Source of the DNA: an uncultured Chthonomonadaceae bacterium
GTDB lineage: Bacteria; Armatimonadota; Chthonomonadetes; Chthonomonadales; CAJBBX01
Direction: 5' to 3'
Assembly: GCA_964396385.1 (NCBI GenBank)
Contig: CAYNFH010000001.1
Coordinates: forward strand, 51,123 to 115,122
Length of the DNA stretch: 64,000 nt
Below the pieces are notes generated by a model. That model saw only the letters and a list, made by a program, of their open reading frames with translations. It searched no databases and was not told the DNA's origin. Of the stretch, positions 185-52,138 are shown piece by piece (the stretch's first letter is position 1; each line of letters opens with the position of its first letter). The translations under genes and the position numbers were made by a program.

Positions 185-251
185 CGGTCCGGTTCTCCGG
201 AAGTCACTATCGGTGGCCCCATCGTGACTGAATAGCAGTGATGGCATTCCC

Positions 252-283
252 CCACAAAGTGGGACCATGGTCCCACTTTGTGG
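252..283. repeat. Perfect 32-bp palindrome CCACAAAGTGGGACCATGGTCCCACTTTGTGG
   Basis: Read directly; the two 16-nt halves are exact reverse complements, centred on CCATGG. Intergenic, between the phosphotransferase 3' end and the DUF559 3' end. Confidence 0.95.
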
Positions 284-403
284 TCATTTGGTCCCATCGC
301 CGGACGAGCATGAAGGATTTGAAGAGGCGGCCGTGGCGGGCGTTACGGTAAATCTATACATCGGCGAGCGTGAGTCCTCCGTCATATGAACGCACTCACG
401 CGG

Positions 404-472
404 CCAGACACCTCCCTGGTAGGGAGGGCGAGGAACGGAGCTGCGGGTACGGCGGTGAGTGGGTGGGCCGGC
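404..472 (+). repeat. Copy 1 of a ~69-nt repeat family (hairpin CCTCCCT-N3-AGGGAGG, then ~31-33 nt, then GGTGGGCC)
   Basis: ccagacaCCTCCCTggtAGGGAGGGcg...GGTGGGCCggc. After the hairpin it aligns position-for-position (same length, roughly 70% identity by eye) with the copy at 1192-1260. Confidence 0.8.
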
Positions 473-507
473 TGAGGCCGCCTTATGACGTAATCTGAAT
501 TCCTGCA

Positions 508-921
508 TCACGGCTCTTCGCGGTCCGCGACAGTGCGTTGAGCGGCGACTGCGGCTCGGAGCTCAGACAGAACTCCCTCCAGATCCTGCTGCACTCGGTC
601 ATTGGAGAACCTCAGTACGCGCAGGTTGCGACGCTCTAGAATCCGGTCTCGCTCCACATCATAATCCTTCTGTCCGGAATGAATCGAGCCATCCAGTTCT
701 ATTACCAGCCCTGCCGCATGGCAGTAGAAGTCCACGATGAAGCCATCGATCACCTGCTGTCGCCGGAATGGTACTCCGTCCAGCCGGCTGTTCCGGATCC
801 GGGCCCACAGCTTCGCCTCCGCGTCGGTCATCCTGTGGCGCATCATCCGCGCCGACTCCCGCTTCACCTGCGAGCTTGGCCCGTACACGATGCCTGAGCG
901 GTCTACCTCATTCTGCTCCAT
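508..921 (-). CDS. DUF559 (Vsr-like) endonuclease domain protein
   Basis: Translation ...RHRMTDAEAKLWARIRNSRLDGVPFRRQQVIDGFIVDFYCHAAGLVIELDGSIHSGQKDYDVERDRILERRNLRVLRFSNDRV is typical of DUF559. The ORF track extends to 1125, but that N-terminal part reads through repeat elements; ATG at 921-919 (MEQNEV...) chosen as start. Confidence 0.75.
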   Translation of the reverse strand: MEQNEVDRSGIVYGPSSQVKRESARMMRHRMTDAEAKLWARIRNSRLDGVPFRRQQVIDGFIVDFYCHAAGLVIELDGSIHSGQKDYDVERDRILERRNLRVLRFSNDRVQQDLEGVLSELRAAVAAQRTVADREEP

Positions 922-1022
922 ACCCGCACCTTCTCCGGCCGACCCGGAGGCCCACGCCCGGAGGCCTACCCACGCAACTCCGTACGTGTTGCTCCGCCAT
1001 ACGGAAGGCCCACCCACGCCCG

Positions 1023-1090
1023 GAGGCCCACCGGCATATTGCTGTACGCGTTGCTGCGCCCTACGCCCTCCCTGAGAGGGAGGGGAGCCA
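1023..1090 (-). repeat. Copy 2 (inverted orientation) of the ~69-nt repeat family
   Basis: The reverse complement reads ...cCCTCCCTctcAGGGAGGGcgtagggcgcagcaacgcgtacagcaatatgccGGTGGGCCtcc, with the same hairpin, spacing and terminal GGTGGGCC. Its tail is tandemly duplicated at about 955-1006. Confidence 0.65.
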
Positions 1091-1191
1091 TTGGTGTGAG
1101 GTTGATACATGGAACGGCCTGCCAATAATCGGACTTACTTCAGGTACGAGCGGCCCGGATGCTTGCGAACGAACCTGATGACCTCAAGCAT

Positions 1192-1260
1192 CCAGACACC
1201 TCCCTCCCAGGGAGGGTGCGGAACCGGGCGGCGAGTAGGGCAGTGCGCAGGTGGGCCGGC
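1192..1260 (+). repeat. Copy 3 of the ~69-nt repeat family
   Basis: ccagacaCCTCCCTcccAGGGAGGGtgcggaaccgggcggcgagtagggcagtgcgcagGTGGGCCggc. Confidence 0.8.
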
Positions 1261-1288
1261 GCGACGGGCTTGCCCTGCTAATCTCCTG

Positions 1289-1588
1289 CTACGGCCGGCA
1301 CGTGCATCCGCGGCTCAGAGAACCACCGACGTCGTTGGCAGCCCACCGGTCCAGTTCTGCCGCGTCGTTGGAGCAGACCTTGCGGTATCCGTTCCCGACG
1401 CGGCGGGCGGGGCTCGCTATGTGGCGGCACGTGGCGCGGTGCAGCACAAGGTAGATCGGAGATGGATTCTCGTAGCAGTTCACCACGTAGCCGTTCGGGT
1501 TGGCGGCCAGCCAGGCGAAGTAGGCCTGGTCACTGTCTGGGAAGTCCGGCATGCGATTCTCCTTCTCCGAGGTGGCTGGTTCGCTCAT
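1289..1588 (-). CDS. Hypothetical small protein (99 aa)
   Basis: ORF immediately downstream of hicB (17-nt gap). The sequence ...GYVVNCYENPSPIYLVLHRATCRHI...YRKVCSNDAAELDRWAA...CTCRP looks protein-like, but no family was recognised with confidence. Confidence 0.45.
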   Translation of the reverse strand: MSEPATSEKENRMPDFPDSDQAYFAWLAANPNGYVVNCYENPSPIYLVLHRATCRHIASPARRVGNGYRKVCSNDAAELDRWAANDVGGSLSRGCTCRP

Positions 1589-7838: not shown

Positions 7839-10622
7839 TCACTCGGCGCCAGGACTCGCGAGCGCAATGAGCTGATCCGTGCTCATCTCACGCCCTCGTT
7901 CCCACGCAGCCGCGAACACCGCGTCGCCTAATTGCCCACGCGCCACGGCAACGTTGTGCTCGTAGTCGGCTCGTTCTCCTTCGAAGCGGGCGACGTGCGC
8001 CGACTCACGGATCCGCTCGATCCCGCCCCAAAGAGCAGTCGCCTCCGCTGGCCGGCCTTCGCGCAGAGTGAGCATGGCCCACCCCTCCAGTGAGACCAGA
8101 AGGGTCTGTTCTACATCTATTTCCATCGAGATCGCCGTGCTTCGCGACAAGAGCTTGCGGGCTTCTCGGAGATCCGACCGTGCCAGGGCCGTCCGCGCCA
8201 ATAGCGCTGTTAGCAGGGCCACGCTCTTCCTGTCGCCCAGGTCTGTGGCGATGGCAAGGGCCTCCTCCCTCAAGGCGCGGGACTCTTCATAATTTCCCTG
8301 TCGGTGGCGTACGCTTCCCAGCACGATCAGCGGGTAGATCGTCCCATGTGCGTTGATCAATTGGCGGAAGCCCCTCAGGCTCTCCTCGGCCCAGAGTCGC
8401 GCCTGCTCCAGATCGCCTTCTTCCAAGGCCGAGAACGCAAGGTTGACCAGCGCCGTTGCAGTTCCTTGATGATCGCCGAGTCCCCGGATAATGGTCAGGC
8501 TCTCTTCATAGAACGCCCGCGCCTCGCTGTACCGTCCCTCCGCAGCCGCCAGGACGCCGAGGTTGTTCAGTGACGCGCTGATGCCCTGGCTGTCCTCAAG
8601 CGCCCGCCGCGTCGCCAGACCTTCTTGGAGCAGCGCGCTCGCCTTCGCGTGGTCGATGGCAATCGCGAGTGCGCCCGCCGCGTTCAGTGCAGCAGCTCGC
8701 TCCCTGGTGGCGCCGCAGGCCTTGCTGTGCTCCAGTACAGCCTCCAGGTGACCAAGTCCGTCGCTGTAGTATCCGCGCACTTCCCAGAACCGCCAGAGTG
8801 CGATGGTGAACCGCAGTTCCTTTGGGACGGCTTCAGGATCGTCGGCCAGTTCCTCCGCACACCACGCCAGCGCGGCGCGAATGTTTTCGTGCTCCATCTC
8901 GAGACTCCGGTGCCACCGCGCTTGATCCGCACCCCTTAACTGCTTAGCAGCTTCCTCCGCATACCATAGGAACCATTCACAATGCCGGCGGCGTAGCTCA
9001 CCCATCTCGCCGCTTTCCAGCAGGCGGTCGCGGGTGTACTGTCGGATCGTCTCCAGCAGTCCGAATCGGCCTGTTTCGTCGTGGGTTTCGTCCGCCAGCG
9101 GATCGTGCAGCGTCACGAGGGACTTATCTACCAGGCTGGACAGCAGGTCCATAACCTCCGATTCGTCGATTCCTCCCTCCGAGCAGACGGCTTCAGCCGC
9201 CCGCAATGCCCAACCTGCAGAAAACACAGACAGGCGGCGCAGCAGTTTCTTCTCCGCCTCGCTCAGCAGGTCGTAGCTCCAGTCAATGAGCGCTCTGAGG
9301 GTCTGCTGGCGAGGGAGGGCGGTGCGGCTTCCGCCTGTCAACAGACGGAAGCGCTGGTCCAGCCGTGAGCAGATCTCCTCGACGGGCAGAGCCCGGACGC
9401 GGGCCGCTGCCAGCTCTATGGCGAGCGGCATCCCGTCGAGACGTCTGAATATAGACGCGACCGAGGCGGCGTTCTGCCGGGTGATTGCAAATCCGGGCTG
9501 GCACAGCTTGACCCTCTCCGTGAAGAGCAGCACCGCCTCGGATTGCTGTACCTGGACAGGGTGAGTGTCGGTTCCTGTGCGAGGCAAGGAGAGTGAAGGT
9601 ACACGGTAGGTCTGCTCACCGGTTACTTTTAACCCCTCTCGGCTGCTCGCCAGGATCTGCACGTGAGGGCAGAAGCGAAGTATCTGGTCGACTAAATGCG
9701 CGCAAGATTCGAGCAGGTGCTCGCAGTTGTCCAGTAAGAGGAGGAGCCGCTTCGGCTTCAGGGACTCCACCAGAGTACGGGTGAGCGGCTTGCCAGATTC
9801 CTCACGCACTCCAAGCACCAACGCGACCTCCTGAGCCACAAGATCCGAATCCGTGACGGATGCCAGCTCGACCACCCAGACGCCATCGGGATACATGTCC
9901 AGCCTATTGGCCGCCACCTGGAGGGCCAGGCGCGACTTGCCACAGCCGCCTGAGCCCGTGAGCGTCAGAAGGCGCGCCGTCTTGATGAGCGTGTGAATCT
10001 CGCTCATCTCCTTCTCGCGACCGATGAAGGACGAGAGCTGTACGGGCAGATTGTTGGGCAGTTCGGTGCTGTCGAGTGACCGGAGCGGGGGGAAGGCGGA
10101 GGCCAACTCAGGGTGGATTAGCTGAAAAACATGTTCGGGCCTTGCAAGATCGCGGAGACGATGTTCCCCGAGGCTAAGAAGGGAGCATAGGGGCGGAAGA
10201 TTATCGCGTGCCAACTCCTGCGCAGCGGCAGAGATGAGCACCTGCCTTCCATGGCCCGCCGAAAGGAGCCGCGCGGCGCGGTTGAGCGCTTGCCCCACGT
10301 AGTCTCCATCCCGCGCTTCGGCGGCTCCCGTGTGAATCGCCATCCGGACACGGATCGACAGATCGCCTGCCGCAAGTGATCGCAAACTGAGCTGCGAGTC
10401 AAGAGCAGCTCGCACGGCGCCCGGAGCGCCCGAGAAGGCGGCGCAAAAACCGTCTCCTACCGTCTTGAACACAATGCCACCGTACCGTTCGACGGCTGCC
10501 TTGATGATACTGTTGTGGAGTGACAGGGCCTCACGCATTGGTTCGGGGAACTGTTCCCACAGACGAGTGCTTCCCTCGATGTCGGTGAAGAGAAGCGTCA
10601 CAGTGCCGGTCGGAAGGTTCAT
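7839..10622 (-). CDS. Class III adenylate/guanylate cyclase domain fused to a STAND (NB-ARC/AAA) ATPase and TPR repeats
   Basis: N-terminus VTLLFTDIEGSTRLWE...KTVGDGFCAAF (cyclase), then LTLTGSGGCGKSRLA (Walker A) and LLLLDNCEH (Walker B). The C-terminal third carries many TPR-like A/L-rich repeats. Confidence 0.85.
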   Translation of the reverse strand: MNLPTGTVTLLFTDIEGSTRLWEQFPEPMREALSLHNSIIKAAVERYGGIVFKTVGDGFCAAFSGAPGAVRAALDSQLSLRSLAAGDLSIRVRMAIHTGAAEARDGDYVGQALNRAARLLSAGHGRQVLISAAAQELARDNLPPLCSLLSLGEHRLRDLARPEHVFQLIHPELASAFPPLRSLDSTELPNNLPVQLSSFIGREKEMSEIHTLIKTARLLTLTGSGGCGKSRLALQVAANRLDMYPDGVWVVELASVTDSDLVAQEVALVLGVREESGKPLTRTLVESLKPKRLLLLLDNCEHLLESCAHLVDQILRFCPHVQILASSREGLKVTGEQTYRVPSLSLPRTGTDTHPVQVQQSEAVLLFTERVKLCQPGFAITRQNAASVASIFRRLDGMPLAIELAAARVRALPVEEICSRLDQRFRLLTGGSRTALPRQQTLRALIDWSYDLLSEAEKKLLRRLSVFSAGWALRAAEAVCSEGGIDESEVMDLLSSLVDKSLVTLHDPLADETHDETGRFGLLETIRQYTRDRLLESGEMGELRRRHCEWFLWYAEEAAKQLRGADQARWHRSLEMEHENIRAALAWCAEELADDPEAVPKELRFTIALWRFWEVRGYYSDGLGHLEAVLEHSKACGATRERAAALNAAGALAIAIDHAKASALLQEGLATRRALEDSQGISASLNNLGVLAAAEGRYSEARAFYEESLTIIRGLGDHQGTATALVNLAFSALEEGDLEQARLWAEESLRGFRQLINAHGTIYPLIVLGSVRHRQGNYEESRALREEALAIATDLGDRKSVALLTALLARTALARSDLREARKLLSRSTAISMEIDVEQTLLVSLEGWAMLTLREGRPAEATALWGGIERIRESAHVARFEGERADYEHNVAVARGQLGDAVFAAAWERGREMSTDQLIALASPGAE

Positions 10623-46279: not shown

Positions 46280-48994
46280 TCACTTATTCCGGAAGAGCTC
46301 GCTCAGTATAATGCCGTGGATAAGTGACTTTACCCCGTAACCATTGGACCTCGCGCGGTCCAGGATGGCCTCAACCTTCGGCCGGTCTGCGAAGCGCACC
46401 GGAGCCCAGGTGGAGTAGATCACAAGCTGCTGCGTCAGGTTGCGGGCGATCTGCCGCTCGTCCTTCAGGAGGAGGCGCTTCAGGTCGCGCACGTCCGCAA
46501 ACGCGCGGCCGTCCGGCAGGATGCCGGAGCAGTCCACCGGCTTGCCGTTGTGGAATGCAAAGGGTTGGCCGCCCTTGCCGAAGCCGGGCACCGTATCTTC
46601 ACTGCCCAGCGCGCGATAGCAGGTCCGATAACCGCCAAAGACGTCGAAGCTCTCCAGGGCGAAGCCGGGCGGATCGATCACGGCGTGGCAGGACCGGCAG
46701 GCGGGCTGCGTGCGGTGCTTCGCAAGCTGCTCGCGGATGGTGGTCGCGCCGCGCGTGTCCGGATCCACCGCGGGCACCGAAGCGGGCTTCGGCGGCGCGT
46801 TCTGCCCGAGTATTCGCTCGTTGATCCAGACGCCGCGCAGCACCGGCGAGGTGGTCGTGCCGTTGGCCGTTACCTTCAGGATACTGGCCTGAGTCAGCAG
46901 CCCGCCTCGTACGGAGTCCTTCGGCACCTCCACGCGACGGATGGCGGCGCCGTCCACGCCCTTGAGGCCGTAGAGCGTCGCAAGCCGGTCATTGACCATC
47001 ACGAAGTCCGAATCCACCAGGTTGCGCGCGGGGAGATCCTTGGCGATCAGCTCTGCGAAGAAGTCCCGCGTCTCACGGATGGAGGACTCGACCAGGAGGT
47101 CATCCAGGTAGTAGTCTCCGTATAGGTCGCCGTCCGGATTAGTGTCGCCTACCTTGCGCAGGTCGAGCCAGTAGTCCAGGAACGCCTGCACGAACTGGCG
47201 GGACCGCGGGTCGGCGAGCATGCGGTCGGTCTGCGCCAGCAGGACGGCGGGGTAGTGCAGCTCCTTGCGCTCGGCCAAAGTGCGCAGAGTGGCGTCCGGC
47301 TCCGTGTTCCAGAGGAAGTAGGAGAGGCGGGACGCCAGCGCGTAGTCGTCCAGCCGTCCCGGCCGCTCCTCCAGCGTGAGGAAGCCGGGTGAGCAGAGCA
47401 CTCCGGAGTAGGCGGCGATCATCGCATCCGTGAAATCCACGCCGGCGTCCAGCGCTTTGTTCGCCAGCTTGACGAAGGGCTGGATGTCCGAGTCCTGAAC
47501 GGGCCGGCGATACGCGCGCAGCACAAAGCCGCGGATAAGCCGCGCCGCGTCGGCCTTGGGATCCCTGGACTCGACCGTTATCTTCCCGTCCGGGCCGGCC
47601 TTGAAGGGCAGGTTGCCGAACATCAGCCGCTGGCCCGGCGTGGGCCAGGAGTCGAGGAGCGGCCCCTCCACCTCCAGCCATTGGAACGCGACGCCCGGCT
47701 GGCCCTCCGGGGTCGCGAGTGGATTGTGCCAGCCGGTACGGGACTTCTTTGCCAGCGGATCGTCCGGGTTGGGCGGTCGCGAGCGGAAGAGCCGGGCCGC
47801 GTCCGGCATGATGGTCTCGCCCGTGAGCAGGATAGCGTCTATGTCACACGTAGTGGACTGAGGGCCGACGTCCACCGTGCCGAGCAGCCTGAGCTGCTGC
47901 GGCGGGGAGGCAGCGTAGAGGCTGATGGGCTCCCGCGTGCGGCCGGCGGATATCACGGTGCGGCTGGCCTGCCACCACCTGGCAGCGCTCTCCGGCCCGG
48001 CCCAGAAGGAGTGGGCGCGGATCCGCAGCCTGTACCGGCCGGAGATGGGGGCGTGGAAGCGGTCGAAGCGCGGCTGCAGCGGCTCGTAGGCGCTGGCGAC
48101 CACGCCCAGCGCTTCCTGCTCACGCTTCACCGGGTCCTTCTCGCCGACGGTCATGGGTCCCGTTCCGTTGAGGGCGGGAAGGTCCGCCGCGTCTCCGAGG
48201 ACGGGGAACGTCGCTCGGGCCGTGGCGCCGGAGTACGCGAAGCCAGCTTTCACCAGGCCGGCAAAGGAGCGCTGCTCGCGGGCATAGTAACGGGTTGTGG
48301 TGGTCTCCGGCCGCGCGACCTGCGGCGCCATGGCCTCCCGGAGCGCGTATTCCGCCGCGGCAAGGTAGCGGCTCATCTGGACGTGCGAGACGTCCAGCGC
48401 CTCTCCGAGCTTGTTGAAGCGATAGGCCAGCCCATCTTCCGGGAGCATGTCCCGGACCTGGAGCCACGGCGCGCCAAGCAGGTCCCGCAGCGTGTTCTCG
48501 TATTCGTAGCGGTTCAGCCGCCGCCAGACGGCGCGACCCTCCCGGCGGGCCCGCGCATCCTGAAGAGCGATCAGCGGCTGTGTTAGCGCGGCGAGGAAGC
48601 CGTTCCGCGCCGCGGGAGCGGGCCGGGGCATGCCTTTGGGCGGCATCTCGCCCTTTTCTACGCGATCGTGGACCTTCACCCACAGGGCGAAGTTGGACGG
48701 GTCACCCGGCCGGAAGGGGGTCGCGGCGAAATTCAGGCCGCCGCTCGCGGTCTGCTTGTTGTGGCAGAGGGCGCAGTTCTGCTTGATAAAGCCCTGCACG
48801 GAGGCGGGCAGAATGGGTGCGGCCTGCGCATGGATGCGGTGAGCCCGGCCGCGCTGTGCGCGCGTGCGCTGGGGCGCGCTCGCGTGCACGAAGCAGGCGG
48901 AGAAGAGGAGCGCAGCGGTGCTGAGCGCCAGCGCGAGGAACGGCCGGACCGGACAGACGGAGGACCGGTGACGGGTGACCGGCCCGGAATCCAT
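46280..48994 (-). CDS. DUF1592/DUF1588/DUF1587/DUF1585/DUF1595 multi-domain protein with an N-terminal heme-binding CxxCH
   Basis: ...[11 protein letters not shown]...; later [16 protein letters not shown] (DUF1585-like). The start is uncertain: ATG at 48994, 49015 or 49111; 48994 gives a signal peptide. Confidence 0.85.
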
Positions 48995-49296
48995 CCGTCC
49001 ACCGTCTTCCGTCATCCGTCGTGTTCTTTGGCTCCGGCTCAAGCGGCGGTTCTCTCCTGGCGATGGCATTCGTGTCGCACTATGATGGAAAGGGTATTCC
49101 ATTGGTGGCAAATTGTCAATCCGCGCTCCCTACAGACCCGCCGCGGAAGCGAGTCTGGTGAGACATTGTCTCAAAATTGGCAGGCTGCTGGCCCTCACCC
49201 CCAACCCCCTCTCCCAAGAACAGGAGAGGGGGAGCAGGAGTGAGACATTGTCTCAAAATTGGCGCGGCGGGACTCTGTGTTGCTTTAGTGGCGTTC

Positions 49297-49332
49297 CGCT
49301 ACAATTTGAGCGGATCCGCTCAAATTGTAGCG
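49297..49332. repeat. Perfect 36-bp palindrome CGCTACAATTTGAGCGGATCCGCTCAAATTGTAGCG
   Basis: Read directly; centred on GGATCC. Confidence 0.95.
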
Positions 49333-49414
49333 ATTTGCTCTCATCGCTGCACACGCGACCTTGCGCAGGCGGACTGTCTCTGCTCGCCTGGGCTCGTGGT
49401 GTGAGACATTGTCA

Positions 49415-49441
49415 CAATTTGACACGCCGCGTGTCAAATTG
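49415..49441. repeat. 27-bp palindrome CAATTTGACACGC-C-GCGTGTCAAATTG embedded in motif copy 3
   Basis: Read directly; 13-bp arms around a single central base. Confidence 0.95.
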
Positions 49442-49623
49442 GGACGGTTGAGGCGGGGAATCGCGGCCCGGGTGGAGTGAGACATTGTCTCAAATTGCTG
49501 GACTTTGCGCACGCTCGCTCGCTTACGGATGAACTCGTCAAGCTCTCTGCCAAGAGCCCTCGGAGAATTGCGCGATGTCATGTTGCGCACGGTATATGGC
49601 GCTATTTGGGCGACTGCACGGCG

Positions 49624-50103
49624 TCAGGCTCGGGACGAGCACGCTTGAAGCGGGCGGCCGAGCGCAAAGTCGAGAAATTGTAAATTGGCGCGGCGGCGCC
49701 AGATTCGGATATTCCTCTCCAACAGATCGCCGCCTGAGTCTTCGCGGTAATAGCTGGATATTGCGCGGAAAGCGCGGAAAGCGCGATAAGGAGGGTGTAA
49801 CACCCGTTCCAAGCTCAAAAGGAGCAGGACTCCGGTCTTGCGCGGTAAGCGCGGTAAGCGCGGTAAGTAGCAGCGTCCTCGTTGGGGAGAAGCAGGCAAA
49901 GGCAACCGGCATTGCGCGGTAAGCGCGGTATGCGCGGAAGCGATGCCTCCCTGCGAAACGTCGTACTCGCGCATGACCTCTTCCGCAGTCAAGCCGGAGC
50001 CGAGGGAGCCCACGATGATGGAAACAGGAATGCCCAGACCCGCGATGACGGCTGCCCCGTGTGCAATATCGGGATCTACGGTGATTCCGGGTGCGATTTC
50101 CAT
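49624..50103 (-). pseudogene. Degraded DUF433-like gene; only the N-terminal ~55 aa are recognisable
   Basis: MEIAPGITVDPDIAHGAAVIAGLGIPVSIIVGSLGSGLTAEEVMREYDVSQGGIASA... resembles DUF433 but lacks the usual GKP/GTR residues. The frame then runs through all three 9-mer clusters (SAHTALTAQ, LPRLPRLPR, YRAFRAFRA) without a proper stop. Confidence 0.4.
49763..49940. repeat. Three 27-bp clusters of a 9-bp tandem repeat (GCGCGG[T/A]AA x3) at 49763-49789, 49840-49866 and 49914-49940
   Basis: Read directly. Each cluster is preceded by (A)TTG. Cluster starts are 77 and 74 bp apart. Confidence 0.9.
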
Positions 50104-50453
50104 CTTTGTCCGGCCCAGCCTGCGCCTTTAGGGGTGCAGAGCTCGGCAGCGGTTGGCTCGGCTTCACCGGATTCGAGCCGTGCGACCCTGAGAAGGTGGG
50201 CGGCGGGTACTTCGGCGCGGTGTAAGGCGAGGTAGTGGATGCAGAGGGAGTTGGTCTCTTCGCCGTTCGGGAGAACGTAGTCGCAGTTGGTGCTCCTGGC
50301 GCCGCAGCGGCAAACGTGGACTCCTCGCCAGGTTCTTGCCCGCGTCGCCATGCGGAACGCCGCGGTCATCCTGCGGGTTAGGTAGTCCACCACCGGTTCG
50401 GGCGAAGCCGGTCCGGCCGGCTCGATGTAGAGCAGTCTCTTCTCTGCAAGCAG
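50076..50453 (-). CDS. Hypothetical Cys/His-containing small protein; start uncertain (possible CTG after GGAGGTGA)
   Basis: ...EPVVDYLTRRMTAAFRMATRARTWRGVHVCRCGARSTNCDYVLPNGEETNSLCIHYLALHRAEVPAAHLLRVARL... is protein-like. The track ORF start at 50618 abuts the GH51 gene and its N-terminal part looks non-coding. Confidence 0.4.
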   Translation of the reverse strand: MLAEKRLLYIEPAGPASPEPVVDYLTRRMTAAFRMATRARTWRGVHVCRCGARSTNCDYVLPNGEETNSLCIHYLALHRAEVPAAHLLRVARLESGEAEPTAAELCTPKGAGWAGQRWKSHPESP

Positions 50454-50614: not shown

Positions 50615-52138
50615 TCACGCTAACTCAATCGTCAGACGGGAGACGGAGGCGGGAGGGAGCGTGAAGACGGCGGAGCTCTGCTGGCCGCTGAATGCCACGT
50701 CCAGGGAGCGCCGGTCTACCTTTGCCGGCTCGTCGTGCGTGTTGTGCGCGCGGAGGTCCCCGGAAGGATAGCTCAGCCCGCGCGCCTGCGCCGACCGCGG
50801 CTGCGCCCCGCCCGAGAGGCTGAGCGCCGCCTCCACGCTCTCCCCGACGCTGGAGTTCACCAGCGTGAGGGTGAGGACCCGCTCCCGCAGGGAGGCAGAC
50901 CCCGAAAGCAGGGGCAGCTTTCGGGCCTTGCCCGCAACGGTGGAGTCGATCTCCGGGGCGTTCACCTCCGTTCGCACCGCCTTTGCGCCCTGGTGCGGTT
51001 TGTACAGGTCGTAGACGTGATAGGTGGGGGTCTTCAGCATCCGGCCGCCGTCGGTCAGGACCAGCGCTTGCAGCACGTTGATGGTCTGCGCGATGTTGGC
51101 CATGACGACCTTATCCGCATGGCGGTTGAAGATGTCCAGCGTCAGCGCGGCCACCAGAGCGTCGCGCACCGTGTTCTGCTGCCAGAGGAAGGCCGGGTTG
51201 CGGCCCGGGGCGGGGGGATGCCAGGTGCCCCACTCGTCCACGATCAGGCCGACCTTGCCCTCCGGGTCGAATTCATCCATCAGGGCGCGCTGCTCCACTA
51301 CGAGCGGCTCCATCTGGAGGGCGGCCGCCAGCATGCCGTACCACTGCGTCTCGTCGTATTCGGTCGCCGTGCCGTACTGGCCTTCCCGGTTCCAGGTGTA
51401 GTAGTGGGCCGCGTAGCCCTGCATGGCCGGGCTGTGGCCGTAGTCCCTGTACAGCTTCTCGAAGAGGCGGCGCGTCCAATCCAGGTCATGGCTGTTGGGA
51501 CCGCAGCCGATGAGATAGAGCCGGTCGGGACCCCAGTTGCGCAGAAAGCTGGCGAAGCGGCGGTACTCCGTGCCGTAATCCTCCGGCGTGAAGTGGCCGC
51601 CGCAGCCCCAGCTCTCGTTACCCACCCCCCAGTAGCGCACGTTGAACGGCTCCGGCGACCCATTGGCGGCCCGCTGCCGCGCCCAGGTACTGTCGCCGGG
51701 GAAGTTGCAGTACTCCACCCAGTTACGCATCTCCTGGGGCGAGCCGCTGCCTAGGTTGCCACAGACATAGGGCTGGGCGCCGACGGCGCGGCAGAAGGCG
51801 ATAAACTCGTGCGTGCCGAACTCGTTGGCCTCGATCACGTCGCCCCAGTGGATGTTGATCCGCCGCGGGCGCTGATCGCGCGGGCCGATGCCGTCCTGCC
51901 AGTGGTAGTCGTCGGCGAAGCAGCCGCCGGGCCAGCGGATTACCGGAGTGCCGACCTCTCGCAGTGCCGCGACCACGTCATTCCGGATGCCGCCCGTGTG
52001 GGCGATGGACTCGTGGTCGCCCACCCAGCATCCCTCCGTGATGCAGGTGCCCAGGTGCTCCATGAAGTGGCCGTAGATATTCGGGTTGATCGTGCCCACC
52101 GGCTCGTCGAGCAGTACGTCTATGGCTGCCTTGGCCAT
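50615..52138 (-). CDS. GH51 alpha-L-arabinofuranosidase
   Basis: ...INPNIYGHFMEHLG...IRWPGGCFADDYHW...YWGVGNESWGCGG.... Confidence 0.9.
   Translation of the reverse strand: MAKAAIDVLLDEPVGTINPNIYGHFMEHLGTCITEGCWVGDHESIAHTGGIRNDVVAALREVGTPVIRWPGGCFADDYHWQDGIGPRDQRPRRINIHWGDVIEANEFGTHEFIAFCRAVGAQPYVCGNLGSGSPQEMRNWVEYCNFPGDSTWARQRAANGSPEPFNVRYWGVGNESWGCGGHFTPEDYGTEYRRFASFLRNWGPDRLYLIGCGPNSHDLDWTRRLFEKLYRDYGHSPAMQGYAAHYYTWNREGQYGTATEYDETQWYGMLAAALQMEPLVVEQRALMDEFDPEGKVGLIVDEWGTWHPPAPGRNPAFLWQQNTVRDALVAALTLDIFNRHADKVVMANIAQTINVLQALVLTDGGRMLKTPTYHVYDLYKPHQGAKAVRTEVNAPEIDSTVAGKARKLPLLSGSASLRERVLTLTLVNSSVGESVEAALSLSGGAQPRSAQARGLSYPSGDLRAHNTHDEPAKVDRRSLDVAFSGQQSSAVFTLPPASVSRLTIELA

Follow-up and report, generated by a model that had tools for sequence, protein, structure and literature searches.

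A gene-less, repeat-rich island in an Armatimonadota contig as a possible patchwork of orphan mobile-element binding sites

Contig CAYNFH010000001.1, from an uncultured Chthonomonadaceae bacterium, contains a non-coding island (49016-49950 of the 64,000-nucleotide stretch analysed, hereafter the window) that lies between a PSD/DUF1592 gene and a DUF433 gene and is packed with direct repeats, palindromes and clustered 9-mers. The best explanation of the whole locus, to which we assign a probability of about one half, is that the island is a wreck, namely a decayed patchwork of cis-acting sites from mobile elements. It would be the decayed or rearranged remainder of a mobile element that landed on the 3' end of the DUF433 gene, and the patchwork would comprise an amplified, orphan half-origin resembling those of DUF3987-type elements and Staphylococcus aureus pathogenicity islands (SaPIs), a private palindromic array and a dispersed hairpin element. 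Most likely the island is neither a cluster of RNA genes nor an ordinary promoter region. The host replicon is a probable Armatimonadota chromosome.

The island zone has a G+C content of 0.56-0.61, compared with 0.66-0.74 in the flanks, and falls within the longest run of 300-nt windows lacking codon-phase GC periodicity in the 64 kb (48781-50280; the runner-up is 660 nt long). This agrees with a previous sequence-only reading, in which the island was singled out as the longest stretch without a credible coding sequence (CDS) and was reported to contain long palindromes, four to five copies of a 23-bp motif, a hairpin with a 10-bp stem (CCCCCTCTCC-N8-GGAGAGGGGG, 49205-49232) and three 27-bp clusters of a 9-mer. 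All of these elements were recovered at the same positions, and none of the repeats is expected by chance. The six open reading frames (ORFs) then listed across the island (49113..49451, 49177..49404, 49285..49590, 49477..49683, 49538..50167 and 49575..49922) also exist. No island ORF has a match in Pfam, PADLOC or NCBIfam, except for the DUF433 part of 49624..50103, and for genome annotation the ORFs called across the island are spurious. No copy of the island motifs was found elsewhere in the 64 kb. Of 10 occurrences of the heptamer CAAATTG in the window, where 2.2 are expected, six are inside the island.

The right third of the island (49741-49945, plus strand) consists of three clusters of three 9-mers each, all in the same orientation and with the plan T-GCGCGG[T/A]AA x3-G. 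Tandem Repeats Finder detected all three, and six matches were counted where 0.16 are expected. Cluster T1 (49763..49789) reads GCGCGGAAA GCGCGGAAA GCGCGATAA, with TT before it and G after it; cluster T2 (49840..49866) is three perfect copies of GCGCGGTAA preceded by CCGGTCTT; and cluster T3 (49914..49940), which reads GCGCGGTAA GCGCGGTAT GCGCGGAAG and is preceded by CCGGCATT, overlaps the last residues of the DUF433 homology. The clusters are spaced 77 and 74 bp apart, and modules of about 36 nt (CCGGnnTT plus the three 9-mers) are conserved among them, in contrast to the spacers of 38-41 nt, which are unrelated. All three lie on the plus strand, and no minus-strand cluster was found in the window at up to three mismatches. 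The predicted folding of the region is unremarkable (z = -1.7). A BLAST match to T2 in Novosphingobium was set aside as a chance coding repeat inside an MFS transporter gene.

Clusters of the same class accompany a family of replication-type genes. Scanning IMG/VR for two and a half units of GCGCGG[A/T]AA, and then for three units of GCGCGNNAA, we found the motif class in the high-GC contigs L019, L020/L021, L024, L026, L029/L031, L035 and L036, as inverted triple clusters. In six independent viral or integrative lineages among the related contigs, two clusters of three 9-mers stand in opposite orientation 20-60 bp apart, and the gene beside the pair belongs to one protein family (37-46% identity) with the Pfam domain DUF3987, with or without PriCT_1, and with PHROGs annotations as helicase or primase. 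The pair is located directly at the 3' end of the DUF3987-family gene in L019, L020, L026, L036, L116 and L118; an excisionase-type HTH_17 gene and a tyrosine integrase gene follow in L019 and L026. The 9-mers of T1 also occur in L019, L020 and L026, and T1 mixes the GGAAA and GATAA variants of L019. In two other contigs (L024:704-790 and L029:4992-5080) the pair is in frame within the primase-helicase gene, in the N-terminal linker that separates a zinc-ribbon-like segment from the conserved core, an arrangement that recalls the lambda origin inside gene O.

An alignment of six DUF3987-family members was then used to fetch 31 further loci. Almost everywhere among these the layout of three plus three 9-mers recurs at the gene 3' end, with a 9-mer that is specific to the lineage (for example GCGAAAAAA, GCGACATAA, ACGAAGAAA, ACGATTTAA, GCGGAGAAA and GGGCAAAAA) and with clusters that typically end in AAAG(G). 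In nearly all of the loci L085-L118 the inverted pair comes directly after the stop codon (e.g. L086:3739-3830, L090:3780-3860 and L116:9417-9485). By a strict count, requiring at least three tandem units of period 8-10 at -70 to +260 nt from the gene end, 15 of 28 loci were positive, compared with nine of 389 control windows. In L116 and L118, which are chromosomally integrated, the genes int, HTH_17, primase and DUF3987 are followed by a 70-bp gap that holds the putative iterons. The arms of a pair vary independently (in L019, for instance, one has GGAAA three times and the other GATAA three times) and the ORFs that read through them use different frames; protein-binding sites are therefore favoured over a coding repeat or an RNA hairpin. 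By analogy with Rep and ori of SaPIs, we infer that the 9-mer triplets are iterons recognized by the C-terminal winged-helix domain of the replication protein (Rep), and that the inverted pair is the origin.

A family-wide origin signature for DUF3987-type elements would be the most useful by-product of this study. The family is very large and poorly studied: a threshold of E<=1e-20 gives at least 6,319 proteins, from several named phyla. If the assignment holds, three plus three inverted 9-bp triplets at the gene 3' end would mark its origins, and both origins and iteron specificities could be predicted from sequence across thousands of integrative elements.

Clusters T1-T3 themselves are predicted to be Rep-iteron-type sites, which we regard as probable. 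Searches with tblastn found no DUF3987, HTH_17, integrase or O-like gene in the window, and no remnant of these genes, or of genes for DUF559 proteins, in the island. With neither a Rep gene nor an opposing cluster, T1-T3 cannot load a head-to-head pair of helicases. They would thus make up an orphan half-origin that is a relic or else acts in trans, binding the Rep of a cognate element elsewhere in the genome and so titrating it. If this is correct, origin modules can persist in a chromosome in amplified and orphaned form, which raises the matter of Rep titration by orphan iterons. An array of protein-binding sites of operator, iteron or centromere-like type, one of the roles proposed in the sequence-only reading, is supported for the 9-mer clusters by their membership of the iteron-pair class at DUF3987 genes; for the 23-mer array described below the same role is plausible and unproven.

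The absence of a Rep gene beside three half-origin modules, and the perfect conservation of T2 and its 5' flank in contrast to unrelated spacers, would also fit a gene-less element that depends on functions supplied in trans, or a decoy, that is to say a trap working by incompatibility or titration, or else a non-autonomous mini-replicon or satellite reduced to its cis sites. We consider this improbable: no cognate Rep is known for the genome, neither att sites nor terminal repeats were found, only one genome carries the island, and an effect on copy number or defence is hypothetical. Slightly more improbable again is an island actively maintained as an 'iteron trap' or miniature trans-dependent replicon, in which the modules and the palindromic array would be kept for binding the Reps or regulators of DUF3987-type satellites or phages. 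Were it true, binding would block replication of the element, making the island a decoy composed of nucleic acid only, or would let the island be replicated or mobilised. The three modules of about 36 nt with unrelated spacers of similar length (38-41 nt) also have the look of a degenerate CRISPR-like or attC-like array. However, the repeats are internally tandem 9-mers that match the putative origin iterons of DUF3987 elements, no model of CRISPR direct repeats matches the modules (a lone weak match, E = 9.4, falls in a spacer), and no cas or intI gene was detected with Pfam or PADLOC among the neighbours tested, so that such an array is scarcely credible here.

The left two-thirds of the island (49158-49740) can be aligned as five to six diverged units of about 80 bp in the order A, B, B', C, D, E. 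The 23-mer GTGAGACATTGTCTCAAA(A)TTG has four strong copies, at 49158, 49240, 49401 and 49477, all on the plus strand (four matches at up to three mismatches against 0.00 expected, with none in 100 shuffles), and a fifth, degenerate one emerges at 49667-49696 when the units are aligned, in keeping with the four to five reported before. The previous reading did not include two further features: 15 bp at the core of the 23-mer form a perfect palindrome, TGAGACAtTGTCTCA, and three palindromes have CAATTTG/CAAATTG arms in common. Copy A (49158..49181) is GTGAGACATTGTCTCAAAATTGGC with the core TGAGACAtTGTCTCA; copy B (49240..49263) is the same, and the GCGCGGCGG after it resembles a lone 9-mer; copy D (49477..49500) is GTGAGACATTGTCTCAAATTGCTG. 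These three retain the 23-mer exactly. Copy C (49401..49424), a variant reading GTGAGACATTGTCACAATTTGACA, is fused to an overlapping palindrome of 17+1+17 nt with 94% matching arms (49411..49445, GTCACAATTTGACACGC-C-GCGTGTCAAATTGGGAC), within which 13+1+13 nt at 49415-49441 are perfect. The unit position B' is occupied by a 36-bp perfect palindrome (49297..49332, CGCTACAATTTGAGCGGA|TCCGCTCAAATTGTAGCG) that keeps the CAAATTG arms and has both inner arms altered, with GAGCGGA/TCCGCTC replacing GAGACA/TGTCTC.

The last unit appears rearranged. Copy E (49667..49696, plus strand) reads GTCGAGAAATTGT----AAATTGGCGCGGCGG; its right part, AAATTGGCGCGGCGG, is identical to that of copy B, and its left flank is the inverted right flank of copy D. 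These two flanks are joined by an imperfect inverted duplication (49493..49679) with arms of 32 nt at 49493-49524 and 49648-49679 that are 81% complementary. The sequence AAATTGGCGCGGCGG is exact at 49256-49270 and 49682-49696, and is similar to ATTGCGCGG, the junction with which every 9-mer cluster begins. This similarity hints that the 23-mer units and the 9-mer modules may share a composite ancestor.

Nothing resembling the 23-mer was found in the genome, metagenome, viral, plasmid or phage collections with pattern scans and BLAST. Exact-pattern scans of genome, metagenome and viral contigs returned single low-GC chance matches only. The same was true of exact scans with 18-20-mers of the genome and metagenome collections, which bear on whether the motifs belong to repetitive extragenic palindromic (REP) sequences or miniature inverted-repeat transposable elements (MITEs). 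A viral scan with the 16-mer TGCGCGGTAAGCGCGG gave 65 loci, all of them rejected as single coincidences in coding sequence, none origin-like. Neither the everted motif GAGAC-N-GTCTC nor CAAATTG palindromes occur in 223 kb of DUF3987-element loci. The 23-mers constitute a well-defined, lineage-private array of predicted binding sites. We read the left array as putative sites for a dimeric DNA-binding protein, and part of it overlaps promoter-like elements that face the PSD/DUF1592 operon. The DUF433 protein was set aside as the binder, given that the sites are downstream of its gene and that the related loci have no DUF433 gene.

Palindromes of this kind may also be read as RNA. A cluster of small structured RNAs was another proposal of the sequence-only reading; such RNAs would be tandem paralogues or similar to the repeat RNAs of type III antitoxins, each running from a 23-mer to a hairpin. 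Each unit of about 80 bp does have a strong hairpin, the fold z-score of 49150-49480 is -5.0, and the inner palindrome arms differ among units with pairing kept. However, the low z-score is due to perfect palindromes in the DNA, and these fold equally well on either strand; the inverted duplication at 49493..49679 has z-scores of -1.9 on the plus strand and -2.9 on the minus strand. The only U-tract terminator is one weak site, the units vary irregularly in length and content, and no adjacent toxin or target gene was found. A scan against Rfam, which that reading had suggested for 49000-50000, yielded no family at the gathering threshold in the whole window, and at E<=10 the segment 48500-50700 gave only chance microRNA-like hairpins. 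In the related 9-mer loci the differences between arms are non-compensatory. No positive evidence for the RNA proposal emerged, and we judge it very improbable.

A stronger rival is that the island is the functional control region of the PSD/DUF1592-HXXSHH operon, in which the palindromes and 23-mers would serve as operators for a dimeric regulator over tandem promoters. The region immediately upstream of PSD (49016..49157, minus strand) has a promoter-like site TTGCCA-18-CATCAT (49111->49082), the -35 element of which overlaps the near-palindrome TGGCAAATTGTCA (49104-49116). The 17+1+17 palindrome and copy C make up a distal minus-strand site (49437->49408), TTGACA-18-GACAAT preceded by TG. 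Both sites face PSD and are partly made of CAAATTG palindromes. Each 23-mer, read on the minus strand, is TGAGACAAT and resembles an extended -10 element, and the cores of 18-24 nt are strictly kept in contrast to their spacers. On the other hand, homologous PSD genes of 74-75% identity have short or unrelated upstream regions without the island motifs, no regulator gene was found beside the island, and a usable -35 element accompanies just one of the four 23-mers. A 0.9-kb leader that includes a degenerate copy, an inverted duplication, a foreign hairpin and origin-type clusters would moreover be an atypical operator region. Overall, we consider a control region unlikely.

That hairpin, within unit A, is the only real match of the island to phages and plasmids in BLAST searches. 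The element (49191..49243) has the form CCCTCACCCCCAACCCCCTCTCC-N8-GGAGAGGGGGAGC, with its stem at 49205-49214 and 49223-49232. The window has no other copy of it. Its type is dispersed in cyanobacteria: elements on plasmids of Pseudanabaena, Leptolyngbya and Kovacikia share 85-88% identity with the island hairpin over about 50 nt. In two Pseudanabaena galeata plasmids (L022:1501-1547 and L023:1501-1550) the hairpin is inside annotated CDSs, with a second similar hairpin nearby; the host CDSs encode a 1,621-aa 'DUF559 domain-containing protein' and a DNA methyltransferase. Either the Pseudanabaena hairpin is tolerated in frame or the gene models are wrong.

At the right boundary the island meets a DUF433 gene fragment (49933..50103, minus strand) that covers Pfam positions 1-52 of 56 and shows a weak codon-phase signal. 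Its homology ends exactly at T3. The ORF lacks a stop codon where one would be expected, and runs on to 49624, reading the three 9-mer clusters in three frames. Because the homology stops at T3 and the stop codon is missing, the boundary appears to be a rearrangement breakpoint in the 3' end of the DUF433 gene. The usual partner of DUF433 genes is a PIN-like DUF5615 gene. The sequence-only reading had described the DUF433 gene as degraded and its partner as missing; the gene stops short of the full Pfam model and has lost its stop codon, and no downstream ORF has a match in Pfam, PADLOC or NCBIfam. The locus thus has neither the intact gene nor the partner toxin gene of a DUF433-type toxin-antitoxin system.

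The gene order on the minus strand is a GH51 arabinofuranosidase gene (50615-52138), a gene for a small protein (~50076-50410), DUF433 (50103 to ~49933), the island, PSD/DUF1592 (ATG at 49015) and HXXSHH/DUF1552. The PSD protein is 100% identical to P0001 (911 aa), which fixes the PSD start codon; its next relatives are at most 75% identical, and those that are named are mostly from Armatimonadota (Armatimonas and Chthonomonadaceae). The small protein (50076..50410, minus strand, about 110 aa) is conserved, belongs to no Pfam, PHROG or NCBIfam family, and has a core rich in Cx-C...H (VHVCRCG...LCIHYLALH). The start of its 180-aa ORF is probably too far upstream. It has 16 homologues, 47-65% identical, in variable, non-syntenic, accessory-looking contexts rich in small genes of no known function. 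Neither these homologues nor the fetched PSD homologues (74-75% identity) are syntenic with the window, and none carries the island motifs. No tRNA gene was found in the 64-kb window. A chromosomal oriC at the island was rejected, the window having no switch in GC skew.

Taken together, the orphan sites, the patchwork duplications with one inverted duplication, the foreign hairpin and the DUF433 end make the wreck of a mobile or defence element, which the sequence-only reading had considered, the best overall fit; no defence gene or PADLOC match was found. Several points weigh against the decayed patchwork as we read it. Insertion and decay, like a cognate Rep in the genome, are conjectural, and the best att-like flanking direct repeat (14 nt, 49078/50011) is within the shuffled null. 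The promoter-like sites that face PSD fit a regulatory role equally well. The 23-mer family, which has no relative in the collections searched, would be tied to a mobile element by association only. Copies A, B and D and cluster T2 are perfect in contrast to their spacers, which looks like selection or recent conversion more than decay alone. Lastly, L035 is a phage with a gpA terminase; a DUF3489 gene follows its clusters at a distance of about 90 bp, and no DUF3987 relative was found in the 12.5 kb covered. It has the closest iteron type (GGTAA) and is the sole other case of same-orientation clusters at 75 bp, so that Rep origins are not the only setting of the 9-mer class. At 7947-8092 this phage has three triplet clusters of GCGCG[G/A][T/A]AA, one on the plus strand and two on the minus strand 75 bp apart.

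A second repeat-rich zone is present at the other end of the window (185-1300). Here a DUF559 gene (511-921, minus strand, Pfam E = 2.9e-36) is surrounded by repeat-rich non-coding sequence of about 320-380 bp per side; the sequence-only reading had put all other gaps in the window at about 370 bp or less. Direct repeats of 78 nt (395-472 and 1183-1260, 78% identity) bear CCTCCCT..AGGGAGG hairpins, a third hairpin lies at 1067-1084, and there are tandem 53-nt repeats at 951-1065. The zone looks like a cassette bounded by hairpin-bearing repeats. A perfect palindrome of 32 bp (252-283, CCACAAAGTGGGACCA|TGGTCCCACTTTGTGG) comes just after the DUF559 gene on its 3' side; outside the island, the 64 kb has no further palindrome that is both long and perfect.

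Among known systems, REP sequences, bacterial interspersed mosaic elements and MITEs are likewise short palindromic units clustered between genes, but the island motifs have no copy elsewhere in the 64 kb. Two high-GC phage contigs (L074:1700-1800 and L050:8830-8920) have four to five palindromic iterons GAGTCTCA-N3-TGAGACTC within a gene for a lambda-O-like initiator, and these translate as ESQFETVVESQIETERVSPVRL. Two of the tandem iterons (GAGTCTCAAATTGAGACTC) have the 11-mer GTCTCAAATTG in common with the 23-mer of the window, although nine of its 11 bases are imposed by the search pattern of the palindrome-arm scan. The half-sites are arranged as GTCTCA-N3-TGAGAC in the phages and as TGAGAC-N3-GTCTCA in the window, and the spacing is 22-24 bp in the former and 76-161 bp in the latter. 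A lambda-O-type origin was therefore rejected except as an analogy: geometry and spacing differ, and the window has no O-like gene or remnant of one.

Clusters of direct repeats that bind an initiator are also found in a second, origin-distal cis region, as in ori1/crr of phage P4 and in the 'inc' sets of plasmids. Extra iteron sets outside origins act in copy control of iteron plasmids, and can titrate or handcuff the initiator; like the second cis region of P4, this speaks for the decoy reading. The P4 and inc sets share a replicon with the initiator gene, in contrast to the window clusters, which are in a chromosome without an initiator within 64 kb.

A published satellite model has a core gene set of an integrase, AlpA/HTH_17 and a DUF3987 primase (PMC10803314). 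None of the integrase, HTH and primase-helicase genes is present in the window, and no direct repeat flanking the island exceeds the shuffled null, so that it does not qualify as an integrative satellite. In the archaeal plasmid pRN1 the origin is a stem-loop 3' of a gene with prim-pol, SF3 and winged-helix domains (PMC4234260). The related DUF3987 loci resemble it in having the putative origin just downstream of the primase-helicase gene and built as a long inverted repeat. In pRN1, however, the element is conserved as a structure, not as iterons, and the window, lacking an inverted arm, cannot form such a stem-loop.

The closest parallel is with SaPIs. Their origin comprises 6-12 iterons that closely follow rep; the two halves of the set flank an AT-rich centre, point in opposite directions and are read by the C-terminal winged-helix domain of the self-loading SF3 helicase Rep (PMC9371898). 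As in SaPIs and phage-inducible chromosomal islands generally, which have sets of short direct repeats, the loci L019-L118 place their sets right after the rep ORF, opposed around a central spacer. They differ in having 9-mer triplets where SaPIs have repeats of 5-6 nt, and in the protein, which is the SaPI Rep in the one case and a DUF3987-family protein of high-GC, non-staphylococcal hosts in the other. The window departs further from SaPIs, in that its three sets share one orientation and that a rep gene, an opposing set and an integrase are all absent. Thus, the window shares the iteron clusters of a SaPI-type origin but not the adjacent rep gene or the opposed sets, which places it outside that class of origins; from its sequence, it is best described as an orphan half-origin.

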